From: a phage
Strand: one strand, 5' to 3'
Length of the DNA stretch: 64,000 nt
Sequence record: PZ738962.1
The position numbers and the translations under genes are program-made. Positions 3,607 to 61,129 of this stretch are shown here, one piece after another; the first letter of the stretch is position 1; the number at the start of each line of letters is the position of its first letter. A model generated the notes under the pieces. That model did not search any database. It saw only the letters and a program-made list of their open reading frames with translations, and had not been told where the DNA came from.

Positions 3607-4362
3607 ATGAAAAACTATTATCTATACGAAATAAAGAACAATATAAATGGTAAGATATATGTTGGCATTCGTGGGTATGATGGTGACATAAGTCAAGATC
3701 CTTATATGGGTAGTGGATTGACTCTTAAGAGGTCTATTAAAAAGAACGGGATAGAAAACTTCACAAAAACAATTCTCAAAACGTTTGACTCATGGAAAGA
3801 GGCAAGGAAAGCAGAAAGAGAAATAGTTACAGAGGAATTTGTAAAAAGAGAAGATACCTATAATGTTTCGGTTGGTGGACAAGGTGGAAATACTCACGCT
3901 GGGATGAGCGAAGAACGAAGAAAACTTGCAAGCGAAAGACACGCAGAAGCAAACCGAAATAGAGTATGGAAGCAAGAATCTAGAGATAAGGTTAGCGCAA
4001 GATTCAAAGGTCATAAGCTATCACAGAAGCAGATAGACGCGCTAAAGAAGGCAAACACAGGAAGAAAGTTCACAGAAGAACACAAGTTCAAAATAGGTAA
4101 AACGTGGCGAGGAAAGAAACGACCAGATATAGGAGAGAAGGTTGCGGCAAAATTAACAGGGAGAAAACTACCCCCAGAACATGTGGCAGCAATAACGCAA
4201 AATACACCGAGAGGAAAACAACACTTTAGGGCAAAAAGATTCTTCATCGACGATATGGAATTTTATATTTTGAGTGACGCAGCTAAAATGTTTGGTATAA
4301 GTTATAAAACGGTTAAAGCTAGACTTCTCTCAGATAAGTTTCCTACATGGAGATATGAATAA
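3607..4362 (+). CDS. GIY-YIG homing endonuclease (Seg-like), free-standing between genes 14 and 15
   Basis: 251 aa; N-terminal YLYEIKNNINGKIYVGIRG (GIY...YIG-like); internal KFTEEHKFKIGKTWRGKKRP / KLTGRKLPPEHVAAIT repeat motifs; C-terminal helix-turn-helix-like tail; no T4 gene at this position. Confidence 0.65.
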   Translation: MKNYYLYEIKNNINGKIYVGIRGYDGDISQDPYMGSGLTLKRSIKKNGIENFTKTILKTFDSWKEARKAEREIVTEEFVKREDTYNVSVGGQGGNTHAGMSEERRKLASERHAEANRNRVWKQESRDKVSARFKGHKLSQKQIDALKKANTGRKFTEEHKFKIGKTWRGKKRPDIGEKVAAKLTGRKLPPEHVAAITQNTPRGKQHFRAKRFFIDDMEFYILSDAAKMFGISYKTVKARLLSDKFPTWRYE

Positions 4363-5209: not shown

Positions 5210-8520
<3,311 letters not shown>

Positions 8521-52648: not shown

Positions 52649-53125
52649 TTAATCATGACCGTGATTTGCAATATCCGCTCGCGTCTTATCTTTGTGATTT
52701 CCTACGTCAAAGACACGATAACCATTTTCACGCAAAACTTTAATCACTTCTGGGTTATCCTCAAAGACTCCGACAACTTCATCTTTATCAAAGGATTTAA
52801 TTACCTCTAATTTGATGTGATAGTCTTTACGGGAATCGGTACGGCCTCTCATAAAGATTTTATCAAAACACACCCAGTTAGAAATTAACCAATCAATTGT
52901 TTCCATGTAAGCATGTGAACTTCGTCCGGTGAGGATGTAAATCAAATGCCCGTTGTCGGAAAGAGCATTAATAACACGAATTACATCGTAAATGGGGGAA
53001 TCTCCCCCACATGCTTTGTTATATTCGATCCATGACTCGACTTTATCAAGATTTTCGGTTGGCATCTTTGCTAGTCGATGTGTTGGATCTGTGATCGTAA
53101 AATCTAAATCGACAAAATATATCAT
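52649..53125 (-). CDS. HAD-superfamily phosphatase-like protein
   Basis: 158 aa; N-terminal VDLDFTIT (DxDxT motif I); start overlaps nrdB stop. Confidence 0.45.
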   Translation of the reverse strand: MIYFVDLDFTITDPTHRLAKMPTENLDKVESWIEYNKACGGDSPIYDVIRVINALSDNGHLIYILTGRSSHAYMETIDWLISNWVCFDKIFMRGRTDSRKDYHIKLEVIKSFDKDEVVGVFEDNPEVIKVLRENGYRVFDVGNHKDKTRADIANHGHD

Positions 53126-54282
53126 AGATATTTCCCGAATCGGTTGTAGTCGTCATCTGTTAAATCGGTATTAACCTGAGATACCAGATACATAATCTCT
53201 ACTTCCTGCGCTGCATTCTGTACTTCGTCAGAGTTCAACCATTTACGCATCCACGGTAACGGATGACGACGAACACTAAACGGGCTTTTCAGTCCGGCAG
53301 CACGCATACGGGAATCTGCCAGGTATTCTACATAGGTTTTCAGAATTTCCGGTGACAGGTTAGGAATTGCCCCCATTGCGAATAGGTGGTCTACCCATTC
53401 TTTTTCTTGCTCGACAACATCCAGAAAGATTTTCGTTGCTTCGCCTTCAAGTTCTTCCGCAATCTGTTTCCACTCATCACCATCAACCCCCGTTTGCCAT
53501 TGACGAATAATGTATTGTGTTCCTTTTAAGTGAAGTTGTTCATCACGCGCAATAAATTTCATGATCTTCGCGTTACCTTCCAGTAAACCACGTTCGGCAA
53601 AGCTGAAAGTACATGCAAAGGACACATAAAAACGGATTGCTTCCAGTGCATTTACGCAGTGTGCACACAGATAAATCGAAGCCATCAGATCTCGTTTTGT
53701 ATCTTCAAAAAATCTTCTTGCATCATCTAATGCTGTCTGGTCGTCTCGTTCTTCCCAATAGCGGAGATCTTCTTTTGCATTCTCATACTTACGAATCCAA
53801 TAAAGAACATCATCATAATATTTCCCGATAGATTCCGCTCGCTTCATGATAGCAGGGTTATCGATGATCTGGTCGAACTCACTAGCCGGATCAATGAAAC
53901 AGTTACGCATAATGTGTGTATAGCTTCGGCTATGAATCGTTTCGCTGAATGTCCATGTTTGCAACCATGTATCGAGAGTTGGATCAGATACAATTGGACC
54001 AAATGCTGCGGACGGTGCGCGACCTTGAATAGAATCAAGTAATGTCTGATACTTCAAGTTTTCAGTAAAGAAACGCTTTTCAACGTCACCCATATTAAGA
54101 TATTGAATGCGGTCGGTTGCAAGTGAAATTTCTTCTGGACGCCAGAAAAATGACAATTGCTTTTCGATCAGTTCTTCAAATACTTGATGACGCTGAATAT
54201 CATAGCGAGCGATACCCAACCCACTACCCAGAAACATCGGTTCGTTCATAATATCAACATGTTCGCGGTTAAATACGCTCAT
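53122..54282 (-). CDS. nrdB: ribonucleotide reductase small (beta) subunit
   Basis: 386 aa; ferritin-like diiron / tyrosyl-radical protein; uninterrupted ORF. Confidence 0.9.
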   Translation of the reverse strand: MSVFNREHVDIMNEPMFLGSGLGIARYDIQRHQVFEELIEKQLSFFWRPEEISLATDRIQYLNMGDVEKRFFTENLKYQTLLDSIQGRAPSAAFGPIVSDPTLDTWLQTWTFSETIHSRSYTHIMRNCFIDPASEFDQIIDNPAIMKRAESIGKYYDDVLYWIRKYENAKEDLRYWEERDDQTALDDARRFFEDTKRDLMASIYLCAHCVNALEAIRFYVSFACTFSFAERGLLEGNAKIMKFIARDEQLHLKGTQYIIRQWQTGVDGDEWKQIAEELEGEATKIFLDVVEQEKEWVDHLFAMGAIPNLSPEILKTYVEYLADSRMRAAGLKSPFSVRRHPLPWMRKWLNSDEVQNAAQEVEIMYLVSQVNTDLTDDDYNRFGKYL

Positions 54283-54297
54283 TAATTCACCTCACTA

Positions 54298-54465
54298 TCA
54301 CTTTTTAACACAAAAGAACTTAGTATTTCTGTTTATTTCGCTATCCTGCTGCAATTCCTGCACAGCTTCAAAACAATTTTGATATGATGAAAACTCTACG
54401 CTGGTAACAGTTCCTTTATTATATACTCCTACGCTAACGGAAAGCAATAACCATAATGTAGCCAT
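54298..54465 (-). CDS. small hydrophobic-N-terminus protein (55 aa), tandem paralog
   Basis: hand-translated MATLWLLLSVSVGVYNKGT...; ATG overlaps upstream stop (TAATG). Confidence 0.35.
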   Translation of the reverse strand: MATLWLLLSVSVGVYNKGTVTSVEFSSYQNCFEAVQELQQDSEINRNTKFFCVKK

Positions 54466-54638
54466 TAGTTCACCTTTTGTTTTTCAACGCAATATAGATT
54501 CATAAAGCGTTTATTGTCTTCGCGGATAATCTCGCGAGCTTTAACGCAATCCTGCTTTGTTGCAAATTCAATGCTTGACATATTTCCGTAATTATACATT
54601 GAATTGCTGATTGCAATCAATAACCATACAGTAGCCAT
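54465..54638 (-). CDS. small hydrophobic-N-terminus protein (57 aa), tandem paralog
   Basis: hand-translated MATVWLLIAISNSMYNYGN...; TAATG overlap on both sides. Confidence 0.35.
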   Translation of the reverse strand: MATVWLLIAISNSMYNYGNMSSIEFATKQDCVKAREIIREDNKRFMNLYCVEKQKVN

Positions 54639-54640
54639 TA

Positions 54641-54806
54641 TCCGACAACCTCAAAACATTTATCATCAGGAAGAATCGCCCATTCTACACCATATTCATC
54701 CTCGACGTAGTAGCAAGTCCCATCATGTCGAGCATCATATTCATCACCAACAACAAAGCTATCAGCTAGTTCAAAAATCTACAGCAACACATTTTAATTT
54801 GGTCAT
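54641..54806 (-). pseudogene. small gene interrupted by a frameshift in an A5/T5 run
   Basis: ATG 54806 with GAGGA Shine-Dalgarno reads MTKLKCVAVDF then stop; the adjacent frame is open to 54641. Confidence 0.3.
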
Positions 54807-54837
54807 AATAAAATCCTCACTTGTTTTTGATGGTTGT

Positions 54838-54866
54838 ATTATAGCGGGGAGAAATCCCCGCGTCAA
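54838..54866 (-). promoter_or_regulatory. promoter-stem-loop cassette (TTGACG, CGGGGATTTCTCCCCGC, TATAAT)
   Basis: read directly. Confidence 0.5.
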
Positions 54867-54874
54867 CACTTATT

Positions 54875-57118
54875 TTACAGCTTGCAAGATGAGCACTCGC
54901 TAGCGTCTTCCGTACCATCTGCACCGTCGCGAACGTTCGCATAATACAGGGTTTTCAGACCGTAATATTGAGCAAACAACATATCATCTAATACATCAGC
55001 AATATCGACTTTACCAGTCTTATAAGTGCTTGGATCATAGGATGTATTGGAACTAATCGCCTGATCCACAAACTTCTGCATGATTGCTGCCAGTGTCAGA
55101 TAAGGCTTGTTACCTTTCTTGATCAGTGTCCAAAGCAGGTCAATAACATCAGCATTATTCTCTACGTTCGGAATAACCTGATTAAATTGTCCTTCTTTCG
55201 ATCCTTTAACCGATACAATCCCGCGAGGCGGTTCAATACCGTTTGTGCTGTTAGATACCTGAGAAGACGACTCACAAGGCATCAGCGCCGACAGTGTACT
55301 GTTACGAATGCCATATTTTTTCAGGTCTTCGCGCAGTTCTTCCCAATCCATCTCATACACCGGATCAACCAGTTCATCTACTGTCTTTTTGTACCAGTCG
55401 ATAGGCAGTTCACCGCGACCATAACGTGTTTCATGCATCAGTTCGCAAGCACCCTTCTCTTTAGCCAGTTGCACACTAGCCTTAATCAGAGCATATTGCA
55501 AGCGTTCAAACGTTTTATGCGTAAACTCGCTAGCGTCTTCATATGTGAAGAAATTATCTGCTAGATATGATGCAAAGTTAGTCACACCAACACCCAGAGA
55601 GCGACGTTTTTTGGCTGTCAGAGCTTGTTCTACAGGATAATCCTGATAATCTAACAGGTTGTCCAGTGCACGCACCATAACCATAGCAATGCGTTCTACT
55701 TCTTCCATATTTTCGATATCAAAGTTTCCTAAAACATATGCTGCCAAAGTACATAGGCTGATCTCTGAATCATCACGACCCATCGGTTTTGTAGGCAGAG
55801 CAATTTCACAACACAGGTTAGATTGTTTAATCGGTGCTACATTACGAATAAACGCCCCGTGATTGTTCATGTTGTCTGTGAACGTTGGGTAGATTCGACC
55901 AGTGTTAAAACGTTCAATTGCCACCGCTAAAAACAGGTCTTCGGCTTTAACACGAGTTTTACGAACACTCGGATCTTTTTCCAGTTTTTCGTAAAGCTGG
56001 CGGAAACCTTCCTCATCTCGGAAGTACAGATCCCACAACAAGCCACCCGCAACATCTGGACTAAACAGAGTAATGTAATCCCGTTTAAGGAATCGCTCTA
56101 CCATCAGGTTATTAATCTGTACGCCGTAGTCAAGATGACGAATGCGGTTATCTTCCACGCCCTTATTGTTCTTTAACACAATCAGACTTTCAAACTCTAA
56201 ATGCCACATTGGGTAATAGAGTGTCGCTGCCCCGCCACGAATACCGCCTTGTGAGCATGACTTAACGGCAGTCTGAAAATGTTTCCAGAATGGGATAACG
56301 CCAGTATGACGAACTTCACCATGCCCGATCTTAGATCCTTCCGCGCGAATCATACCAGCATTGATACCGATACCAGCACGCTTGCTAATATACTTGATGA
56401 TTGCATTTGCTGTTTCGTTGATGCCCTGCAATGAGTCATCACTTTCAATCACCACACACGAACTAAATTGGCGTGTTGGGGTACGCACACCTGCCATAAT
56501 CGGAGTAGGCAGAGAGATTTGCTTATTCGCAACAGCATTATAAAAATCAATCACATGTTCAAGTCGATTTTCTGTCTCTTCTTGATGCAAGCACATACCG
56601 ATCAGCATATACGCAAATTGCGGTGTTTCGATGATTTTCTTAGTGCTGCGATCCTGAACAAGATATTTCTCTTTTAACTGCATCGCACCAGCATAGGTCA
56701 TTTTAAAATCAAGTTTATGGTCGATGAATTTCTCCAGATATTCCACTTCTTCACGGGAATATTTTTGCAGAATTTCGCGATCATATTTTCCGGTTGCAAT
56801 ATTACGCTCAATATGGCTATAAAAATCAATAGGTTGGAATTGACCGTATACTGATTTGCGAAGCGCGAACATTGCAAGGTTACTTGCTACATATTGATAA
56901 TCGGGTGTTTCGACAGTAATGTTATCTGCTGCGACCTTAATCAATACTTTCTGGATATCATTGGTAGACATACCTTCTGTCAGAAGTGGTTCAACCATAT
57001 CAAACAATTCATATGGATCAACGTTATGACCTTCGGCTGCCGCTTCCAGAATTTTCATTACTTTTTCTTTTTCAAACGGAACAGTCAGACCGGAAGACTT
57101 AACAACATTTTTAATCAT
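54875..57118 (-). CDS. nrdA: ribonucleotide reductase large (alpha) subunit
   Basis: 747 aa; class Ia motifs including NLCCEIALP; uninterrupted ORF. Confidence 0.9.
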   Translation of the reverse strand: MIKNVVKSSGLTVPFEKEKVMKILEAAAEGHNVDPYELFDMVEPLLTEGMSTNDIQKVLIKVAADNITVETPDYQYVASNLAMFALRKSVYGQFQPIDFYSHIERNIATGKYDREILQKYSREEVEYLEKFIDHKLDFKMTYAGAMQLKEKYLVQDRSTKKIIETPQFAYMLIGMCLHQEETENRLEHVIDFYNAVANKQISLPTPIMAGVRTPTRQFSSCVVIESDDSLQGINETANAIIKYISKRAGIGINAGMIRAEGSKIGHGEVRHTGVIPFWKHFQTAVKSCSQGGIRGGAATLYYPMWHLEFESLIVLKNNKGVEDNRIRHLDYGVQINNLMVERFLKRDYITLFSPDVAGGLLWDLYFRDEEGFRQLYEKLEKDPSVRKTRVKAEDLFLAVAIERFNTGRIYPTFTDNMNNHGAFIRNVAPIKQSNLCCEIALPTKPMGRDDSEISLCTLAAYVLGNFDIENMEEVERIAMVMVRALDNLLDYQDYPVEQALTAKKRRSLGVGVTNFASYLADNFFTYEDASEFTHKTFERLQYALIKASVQLAKEKGACELMHETRYGRGELPIDWYKKTVDELVDPVYEMDWEELREDLKKYGIRNSTLSALMPCESSSQVSNSTNGIEPPRGIVSVKGSKEGQFNQVIPNVENNADVIDLLWTLIKKGNKPYLTLAAIMQKFVDQAISSNTSYDPSTYKTGKVDIADVLDDMLFAQYYGLKTLYYANVRDGADGTEDASECSSCKL

Positions 57119-59728: not shown

Positions 59729-60054
59729 CCTTTTTGTTCCATGAAAAGCGGTGCTGTTTCTTCTTTCAGTTTAATAACTAGCGCGGAAACTTCATCAAGA
59801 AAATCTTTTTCCATATGAGCAAGCATTGATTTAGAATCTTTGATGACTTTCAAAGAATATTCACTTAGATTTCCTTTTCCTAACAATAATGCAGGATACA
59901 CACTATGTGGGATCTCTATTTCATGATATTCGCTCATAGTATAATATTTGTGAATTTTTAAATCTATATTTCTTCGTTGTACGTCCACATCAGCAATGAC
60001 ATACAGAAGTTCGATTTTATCACTTTTCTGGGAAAGGGTAGCATTCAAAAACAT
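59725..60054 (-). CDS. hypothetical protein
   Basis: 109 aa. Confidence 0.4.
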   Translation of the reverse strand: MFLNATLSQKSDKIELLYVIADVDVQRRNIDLKIHKYYTMSEYHEIEIPHSVYPALLLGKGNLSEYSLKVIKDSKSMLAHMEKDFLDEVSALVIKLKEETAPLFMEQKG

Positions 60055-60083
60055 TGTTAATCCTCCGTTGTTTCGATATGTGC

Positions 60084-60111
60084 ATTATACACTATTGCGT
60101 TACGCTGTCAA
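60084..60111 (-). promoter_or_regulatory. sigma70-like early promoter (TTGACA-16-TATAAT)
   Basis: read directly. Confidence 0.45.
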
Positions 60112-61098
60112 CTCTTTTTCAAAAGTTTTTACGATATACATGATAGTGCTCAATTCAGACGGCGCTACTGTTTCGGTCCAGCCATCCGGCATATCTTCTT
60201 TTGAGATATAGGAAGTTTTACCTTTCATCGCTTCCTTGATCTTGTTCTCTAATTCTAAGATCTTTTGACCGTCTTGTAAAGTCAATTCATAAAAGATCTC
60301 GTGGTCGAATTTAGATTTCGCTGATTGAGCTTTTATTCTATCCTTTGTGGTTCTATTTGTTATACCAAATTTAACACCAAAAAATAAACCATTATTCAAC
60401 AATTTTTGGACATAAAAAGTTCCTTGTCTTGACGGAACGTAACCATATTTCGCACATTTACTACATCTATTACCACTTTCGAATCCAGTTATTGTTGGCG
60501 TAAACTTGTGTCCGTTGCAGCATTGTAGATTTAATTTTGTTTTATTTCCTACCCAATCACCAATAAACCCACTAAACTTTATATTTTCTTTACCAAATAT
60601 TGGCTTTAATCTTTGTAAATAATCTTCTTTTGTTATTGACTTTAATTCTTTAAGTTTATCGGCTTTACATTCGGGGCAACGACAACCGCTATTAAATGTA
60701 TCAATAGTTGGTGTAAACTTATGTCCCTTGTTACATTGTAGATTAAGTCTTGTTAGTTTTCCCTTCCATTCACCAATAAATCCATTGAATGTTATATTTT
60801 CCCTGTAAAATATTGGCTTGAATCTTTGCAAATAATCTTCTTTTGTTATTTTTGTGTATGCACATTTAGGACAGCGTCGACCACTATTAAAACTGTCGAT
60901 TCTTGGGGTGAATGTGTGTCCGTTGGTGCACTGTAGATGTAATTTTGTTCTATTCCCCCTCCACTCACCAATAAACCCGTTAAATATTATACCTTCCGAT
61001 AGACAAACTTCCATGATATTTGACTGATAATCTCCCGGTAATTTTGTTCTCCCGGATTTATAAACTAGTTCAATCTCATGCGCTTGACGTACTAACAT
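60100..61098 (-). CDS. protein with three tandem zinc-ribbon-like repeats and a C-terminal GIY-YIG-like (T5orf172-type) domain
   Basis: start moved to ATG 61098 (GGAGGA Shine-Dalgarno); three repeats F(N/S)GFIG.W.G..T.L.LQC..GH.FTP.I..F.SG.RC..C; C-terminal GTFYVQ...GVKFGITNRTTKDRIKAQ. Confidence 0.5.
   Translation of the reverse strand: MLVRQAHEIELVYKSGRTKLPGDYQSNIMEVCLSEGIIFNGFIGEWRGNRTKLHLQCTNGHTFTPRIDSFNSGRRCPKCAYTKITKEDYLQRFKPIFYRENITFNGFIGEWKGKLTRLNLQCNKGHKFTPTIDTFNSGCRCPECKADKLKELKSITKEDYLQRLKPIFGKENIKFSGFIGDWVGNKTKLNLQCCNGHKFTPTITGFESGNRCSKCAKYGYVPSRQGTFYVQKLLNNGLFFGVKFGITNRTTKDRIKAQSAKSKFDHEIFYELTLQDGQKILELENKIKEAMKGKTSYISKEDMPDGWTETVAPSELSTIMYIVKTFEKELTA
60442..60990 (-). repeat. 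three tandem direct repeats of about 190-210 bp within the coding sequence
   Basis: near-identical DNA blocks (e.g. ccaataaa...ttatattttc...aatattggctt...aatctttg.aaataatcttcttttgttat) seen three times. Confidence 0.55.
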
Positions 61099-61129
61099 AT
61101 TTTTTATCCTCCATTGTTTCGATGTGTGC

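Follow-up and report, generated by a model that had tools for sequence, protein, structure and literature searches.

Between nrdA and nrdB, the phage stretch analyzed here (64,000 nucleotides of the record PZ738962.1, referred to below as the window) carries three small genes, and the first of them (gene 1) meets a stop codon after 11 codons, at a run of five T (T5), beyond which the adjacent frame continues to the expected end of the gene. Such an interruption can be read as a sequencing error, as a recent pseudogene or as a programmed frameshift, and the first-pass annotation of the window had left these three readings side by side. The analysis of the locus and its relatives indicates that the T5 allele is, with high probability, an inherited loss-of-function or strongly hypomorphic allele of a sub-lineage, and that this otherwise constrained gene has been knocked out independently at least nine times, the T5 insertion included, each time recently and by a single lesion.

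The three genes lie on the minus strand and are joined by TAATG overlaps, as read from the sequence: the ATG of gene 2 (54638-54636) begins on the last base of the gene 1 TAA, and gene 3 starts in the same way on the stop of gene 2. The identity of the flanking nrdA and nrdB is backed by their collinearity with the annotation of phage RB49. Both the coordinates and this collinearity agree with the arrangement described at first, and the Shine-Dalgarno of gene 1, the stop after 11 codons at the A5/T5 run and the adjacent frame open to 54641 were each reported accurately. From downstream to upstream, the features of the locus are:

53122-54282, minus strand: nrdB (ribonucleotide reductase small subunit), the downstream neighbour, 99.7% identical to RB49 NrdB.
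54298-54465, minus strand: gene 3 (RB49 ORF231c homolog), 55 aa, PHROG 5579, with AAGGTG 5 nt upstream.
54465-54638, minus strand: gene 2 (RB49 ORF232c homolog), 57 aa, PHROG 5579, with its own GAGG 10 nt upstream.
54638-54772, minus strand: +1-frame remainder of gene 1, 44 sense codons and TAA (54640-54638).
54771-54806, minus strand: truncated zero-frame ORF of gene 1 (RB49 ORF233c homolog), MTKLKCVAVDF and then TGA.
54773-54777, minus strand: T5 run with the 1-nt insertion (A5 on the plus strand; mRNA U_UUU_UGA_A).
54814-54820, minus strand: Shine-Dalgarno of gene 1, GTGAGGA, 7 nt 5' of the ATG.
54838-54866, minus strand: promoter-like site TTGACG-17-TATAAT, directly 3' of the nrdA stop, with 11/12 matches in the scan.
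54845-54860, minus strand: GC hairpin CGGGG-loop-CCCCG, between the -35 and -10 hexamers.
54875-57118, minus strand: nrdA (ribonucleotide reductase large subunit), the upstream neighbour, 99.7% identical to RB49 NrdA and collinear with it.

The ATG of gene 1 occupies 54806-54804, codon 11 (TTT) 54776-54774 and codon 12 (TGA) 54773-54771. The +1 frame, from 54772 to 54641, translates to ELADSFVVGDEYDARHDGTCYYVEDEYGVEWAILPDDKCFEVVG. The sequence GTGAGGA is identical in 17 of the 19 aligned relatives, with one substitution each in W115 and JK32. The promoter-like site, the hairpin loop excepted, is kept in all 19, and the annotation of GEC-3S has a promoter at the equivalent position; it is probably a sigma-70-type promoter driving genes 1-3, as predicted from these motifs. 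Separately, the loop of the hairpin (54850-54855, 6 nt, minus strand) reads ATTTCT in the window and AGAAAT in 19/19 aligned relatives, the pattern of an inverted loop, that is, of a small inversion between the stem arms.

A 751-nt region spanning the locus matches 59 phage records with 92-99% identity, all of them Krischvirus (RB49-like Straboviridae), which places the window among the RB49-like, T4-type coliphages of this genus. In the annotation of RB49 the three genes are ORF233c, ORF232c and ORF231c, and ORF233c is intact, with 168 nt and 55 aa. Alignment with RB49, where the run has four T (T4 run), revealed one extra T in the window, placed at 54773 in the blastn indel list. Codons 1-11 agree with ORF233c throughout, and when one T is removed the whole protein of the window becomes 100% identical to it; this repaired protein matched PHROG 16302 with an E-value of 9e-42, residues 1-55 aligning with positions 1-55 of the 55 of the profile. 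The synteny is also that of the ORF233c family: gene 1 directly follows nrdA, and its stop overlaps the first codon of the ORF232c homolog. Thus, locus, synteny and repaired protein are the same as in RB49, but the RB49 gene is uninterrupted whereas its homolog in the window is broken at codon 12 by an insertion of one nucleotide. The uninterrupted 55-codon frame is absent in the window owing to the TGA that the extra T creates, and the copy is therefore a disrupted allele of the ORF233c family. Neither the ORF list nor the translation contains an in-frame ATG, GTG or TTG in the +1 remainder; alternative initiation in that frame was ruled out, and a +1 shift is therefore the only route to a full-length product.

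The comparison with orthologous loci that had been proposed as a check was informative, since the ORF is present in the relatives and the intact ones have one T fewer. The T4 run together with an intact 168-nt ORF was found in RB49, kvi, MIZ4, W115, Phi1, JSE and others, and the gene 1 ORF is unshifted in about 44 of 53 distinct isolates and in 3/3 uncultured contigs. The T5 allele was found in four sequences only: the window and the phages kaaroe, FL04 and FL38. Phages FL15, FL20 and FL37, from the same laboratory as FL04 and FL38, have the T4 run. A neighbour-joining tree of nrdA groups the four T5 phages in a single clade, to which FL20 and FL37 also belong; this grouping of the T5 phages fits a single origin of the insertion. 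Of the three readings offered at first, the recent pseudogene is the one upheld by the shorter run of the intact orthologs, the presence of T5 in three other isolates and the identity of the repaired protein with that of RB49.

Further lesions of gene 1 were looked for through records in which the gene was unannotated or matched over a differing length, and through the DNA of truncated protein clusters. At least eight further independent disruptive lesions, two nonsense and six indels, were found in the 168-nt gene among isolates and metagenomes, a count that comes partly from records chosen for looking disrupted and in which shared ancestry and recombination complicate the counting of events:

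G37-3 and ELT3: GAG to TAG at codon 12, directly beside the T run of codons 11-12.
pEJ01: one A missing from the A4 run of codons 4-5.
FL20 and FL37: a 2-nt deletion (CT) at codon 31, on the T4-run background.
AV108: gain of T at codon 39.
SRR15275265: loss of G in a GGG run.
ERZ28586303 (metagenome): gain of AT in an ATAT repeat.
ERZ10407628, GCA_019973215.1 and SRR15057925: TGC to TGA at codon 31.
SRR4051861: loss of T in the T4 run of codon 51.

Each disrupted allele carries a single lesion, without exception, and the spectrum looks like that of ordinary spontaneous mutation along the gene and not like one hotspot. Streisinger-type frameshift mutations arise at short repeats in T4-like phages, and most of the gene 1 lesions are likewise gains or losses of one base in runs of three or four identical bases, or changes in dinucleotide repeats; unlike these, two are nonsense substitutions. 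The G to T nonsense change of G37-3 and ELT3, which adjoins the T4 run, would be compatible with misalignment mutagenesis. These two amber phages share a common local haplotype with different flanks, which suggests that the amber allele has spread by recombination. An in-frame change was also observed in GEC-3S (2422-2610), where 21 bp (GTGATGTATATGATGCTCGAC) are duplicated in tandem and the gene 1 protein is longer by 7 residues.

The dN/dS of gene 1 was about 0.16 over the repaired haplotypes (105 pairs, FL20 and FL37 left out), and by this measure it is a real gene under purifying selection. The neighbouring genes behaved differently from gene 1 with respect to lesions. nrdA, genes 2 and 3, nrdB, ORF229c and ORF228c were collinear and had no frame-breaking indel in 20/20 isolate loci, an output that would miss in-frame nonsense substitutions. 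Among the listed records with a single-piece match, the span deviated from 750 nt only by the lesions of gene 1; four further records have a large insertion at the locus. At least 4 of the 11 protein clusters of gene 1 are lesion fragments. The protein search with genes 2 and 3 gave 18 clusters, comprising 16 full-length ones, one lacking a single residue and one 44-aa hybrid of gene 2 and gene 3. With a uniform distribution of lesions among the four small accessory ORFs found at the locus, all five isolate-borne events would fall in gene 1 with a probability of about 6e-4. The comparative data thus depict a gene that selection maintains in some lineages and that has been lost again and again in other ones. 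The recurrence of the knock-outs means, therefore, that in some hosts or conditions the phages can do without gene 1, and that the gene conceivably carries a cost there.

The T5 allele could be leaky instead of null, with a few percent of the ribosomes shifting to the +1 frame and giving the normal 55-aa protein. The mRNA reads GAU UUU UGA A, so that a slippery P-site codon and a stop are both present: in the context U_UUU_UGA_A the UUU codon overlaps a second UUU, and the peptidyl-tRNA-Phe could re-pair perfectly while the UGA waits in the A site. A shift after Phe11 would yield exactly the RB49 protein, and the downstream frame is intact in 4/4 T5 phages. Shifty stops are established, and a minority of bacteria use UUU_U for the shift in RF2 (PMC5009743). 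The RF2 of E. coli K-12 terminates poorly, which raises shifting 5' of UGA (PMC3082878). The site resembles prfB (RF2) and other shifty stops (CCC_UGA in pheL, phage tail genes) in having a P-site codon able to re-pair in the +1 frame followed by UGA. It differs from prfB in that no SD-like element lies about 3 nt upstream of the shift site, where the sequence is GCUGUA, in that the 3' base is A and not the conserved C, and in that the configuration is not conserved among the orthologs and has no evident regulatory logic. In substitution studies UUU_U was also much less efficient than CUU_U (PMC5009743). RNA structure at the shift site was not significant (z -0.34 against shuffles), the Rfam scan of 54000-55100 gave no family and one chance-level match, and TTTTTGA was not enriched in the window (26 matches observed against 29.6 expected). 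Leakiness is consequently put forward as a tentative possibility, and a low-level synthesis of full-length product from this site is plausible. The 44 downstream codons have not decayed, which would fit a very recent lesion and also a continued selection on the frameshift product.

A partial precedent is found in the 'savior' indels with low-level compensatory frameshifting described for the G-run mutants of the herpes simplex thymidine kinase (PMC5009743). In both cases a viral gene is inactivated by an indel in a homopolymer, at which slippage could restore a small amount of product. The run of the window, however, is only 5 nt long, and no selective agent is known. Transcriptional slippage occurs on longer runs, and from general knowledge the T5 run was judged too short for it.

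The reasons for the recurrent loss were also considered. Adaptive loss would mean that making the gene 1 protein carries a cost on certain hosts, for example through recognition by a defence system or through toxicity, and that knock-outs are positively selected there and the gene is kept elsewhere. Nine independent young knock-outs in a 168-nt gene with such a low dN/dS, and none in the adjacent small genes, speak for this explanation, as does the distribution among hosts: gene 1 is disrupted in 6/8 records isolated on K-12 MG1655 compared with 3/45 of the others (Fisher p 9e-5). This association is a lead only, because it is confounded by Danish origin and shared ancestry and comprises just two or three independent events. 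Moreover, the T5 allele predates the isolation of the phages, since it is common to phages with diverged flanks; the gene 1 protein has no known function or interacting host factor; and weak purifying selection with mutation-selection balance could yield the same pattern. Adaptive loss is accordingly regarded as unlikely, and the more specific version, in which ORF233c is conditionally costly (e.g., on K-12 MG1655), the knock-outs are adaptive escapes and T5 is possibly a tuned hypomorph with a trickle of product, as slightly less likely still.

The remaining two readings, an error and a programmed event, did not fare well. In the first, a sequencing or assembly error at the homopolymer, the true genome would have the T4 run. 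The lesion does sit in a homopolymer, although 5 nt is short for an error of this kind. Phage kaaroe was sequenced on an Illumina NextSeq (PMC7552041) and phages FL04 and FL38 on an Illumina MiSeq (PMC12032242). The identical T5 allele is thus present in Illumina assemblies of three relatives from two laboratories, and it is therefore a real heritable allele. Additionally, the whole 64-kb window was aligned to RB49 and the positions of the indels were read against the RB49 annotation. The other indels whose length is not a multiple of three were intergenic or compensated within a few bases, with two borderline exceptions: RB49p196.1, of 25 codons, has lost 1 nt, and ORF206c has gained 17 nt within its final codons. 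Among RB49-annotated genes of normal size, the extra T at 54773 was the only frameshift over the 64 kb that is left uncompensated. Since the remaining indels are intergenic or compensated, the assembly of the window respects coding constraints elsewhere. With T5 in three other independently sequenced isolates and the rest of the window clean, an error is very unlikely.

A selected, programmed +1 frameshift that would regulate the synthesis of the gene 1 protein in the manner of prfB has in its favor the shifty-stop context and the intact downstream frame, and nothing else, and it is a very improbable reading, largely refuted by the comparison with relatives, given that the shifted state is derived and in the minority, being limited to one clade, that no stimulatory element accompanies it, and that the amber, opal, -1, -2 and +2 lesions that break gene 1 elsewhere are beyond repair by a +1 shift.

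The nature of the three proteins was addressed by profile searches and structural models. None of them had a Pfam match above threshold; the closest for gene 1, DUF7244, scored 15.2 bits, below the 27-bit cut-off. The AlphaFold model of the gene 1 protein is five-stranded and all-beta, with a pLDDT of 89.7. Its top matches in the PDB were SH3 domains, with a probability of 0.98 but an E-value of 0.15, and in BFVD it matched many phage proteins with E-values of 1e-3 to 1e-2, both small proteins and N-terminal modules of phage nucleotide-metabolism enzymes, the top viral matches being SH3-like. The protein is tentatively predicted to be a small SH3-like beta-barrel. A word-indexed search and a full HMMER scan of 1.8 billion representatives provided no functional annotation for gene 1. 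Apart from relatives at the level of Krischvirus, they gave only one protein of 58 aa and two long proteins with multiple repeats; as far as these searches reach, the family is confined to Krischvirus. The two long proteins, P0016 (1877 aa) and P0018 (968 aa), match the gene 1 profile at positions 22-52, in 7 and 4 separate stretches respectively, which look like repeated SH3-like modules in large proteins.

Genes 2 and 3 had been described as paralogs with hydrophobic N-termini. Their kinship was confirmed, with 38% identity between them (BLASTP E 6e-16) and full-length matches of both to PHROG 5579 (E 6.8e-24 and 5.7e-24). The hydrophobic N-termini are indeed present in the sequences, but they are modelled, with moderate confidence, as a beta-strand of a small alpha/beta domain and not as a signal or membrane segment, and their hydrophobic stretch, of about 13 residues, is shorter than a membrane helix requires. 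The models are beta-beta-alpha-beta, with a pLDDT of 77, and there are two invariant cysteines. The comparison of this fold with the PDB gave no informative match (best E 0.34). A kinship of gene 1 with genes 2 and 3, proposed from cysteines at similar positions, was rejected on an hhalign probability of 0.3%.

The interval between nrdA and nrdB is hyperplastic in T4-like phages, with mobE in T4 and free-standing homing endonucleases, and it is also variable in Krischvirus. A homing endonuclease is found in place of genes 2-3 in JSE, FL15 and AV108; an annotated DNA methyltransferase is present at the locus in KMB43, Delraymugoa and Aragogtheria, and an insertion of similar size in the unannotated record of LF73P4. 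Other relatives (FL20, G37-3) have a single gene 3-like copy at this position, and one Logan contig encodes the hybrid of gene 2 and gene 3 (P0015). In contrast to the mobile elements of T4-like phages, the window has no endonuclease at the locus and its lesion is a point indel, not the insertion of a mobile element.

Elsewhere in the window, three other differences from RB49 were observed. A 251-aa ORF is inserted relative to RB49 between genes 14 and 15 (3607-4362, plus strand); its N-terminus is GIY-YIG-like (MKNYYLYEIKN..GKIYVGIRG) and the ORF probably encodes a free-standing homing endonuclease. The terminase large subunit gp17 (5704-8520, plus strand) has 938 aa compared with 607 aa in RB49, and contains an in-frame insertion of about 990 nt at approximately 6195-7186, with a LAGLIDADG-like motif (LGYWLGDGH) and the ending ...THNT, which looks like an intein. 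Around ORF238c/ORF239c (59735-61099) the divergence from RB49 is strong, the alignment breaks and one 89%-identical fragment is left, which may reflect a gene replacement.

The following course of events is proposed for the locus. A slippage-type insertion of one T in the T4 run of codons 11-12 would have given GAT TTT TGA. Translation of the T5 allele would then end after 11 residues, the other 44 codons being untranslated except by rare +1 slippage, and the product of gene 1 would be an 11-residue peptide plus whatever this slippage yields; from this truncation we infer the loss of the function of the protein. Genes 1-3 would be transcribed from the predicted promoter located after nrdA. Their translational coupling is deduced from the TAATG overlaps: in intact phages, the ribosomes ending gene 1 would terminate on the start of gene 2, and the same would apply to gene 3. 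In the T5 allele, the ribosomes would be released 130 nt upstream of gene 2, which would rely on its own GAGG. A hairpin was predicted over the start of gene 2, no better than in shuffled controls, and a polar effect of the lesion on gene 2 is possible.

Taken alone, T5 is a frameshift allele of an ordinary kind in a phage ORFan, and its use is mainly for annotation, where the locus should appear as a disrupted ORF233c homolog in place of 'no gene' or of a recoding event. The added value lies in the comparative pattern of a tiny constrained gene knocked out at least nine times with its neighbours intact. Phage genes with such a signature of recurrent loss are good candidates for host-dependent costs, such as immunity triggers or host-range modifiers. 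The natural allelic series of T4 run, T5 run, amber and opal constitutes ready material for testing a host-dependent cost of this kind, and the T5 allele is in addition a natural test of in vivo +1 slippage at a bare UUU_UGA site.
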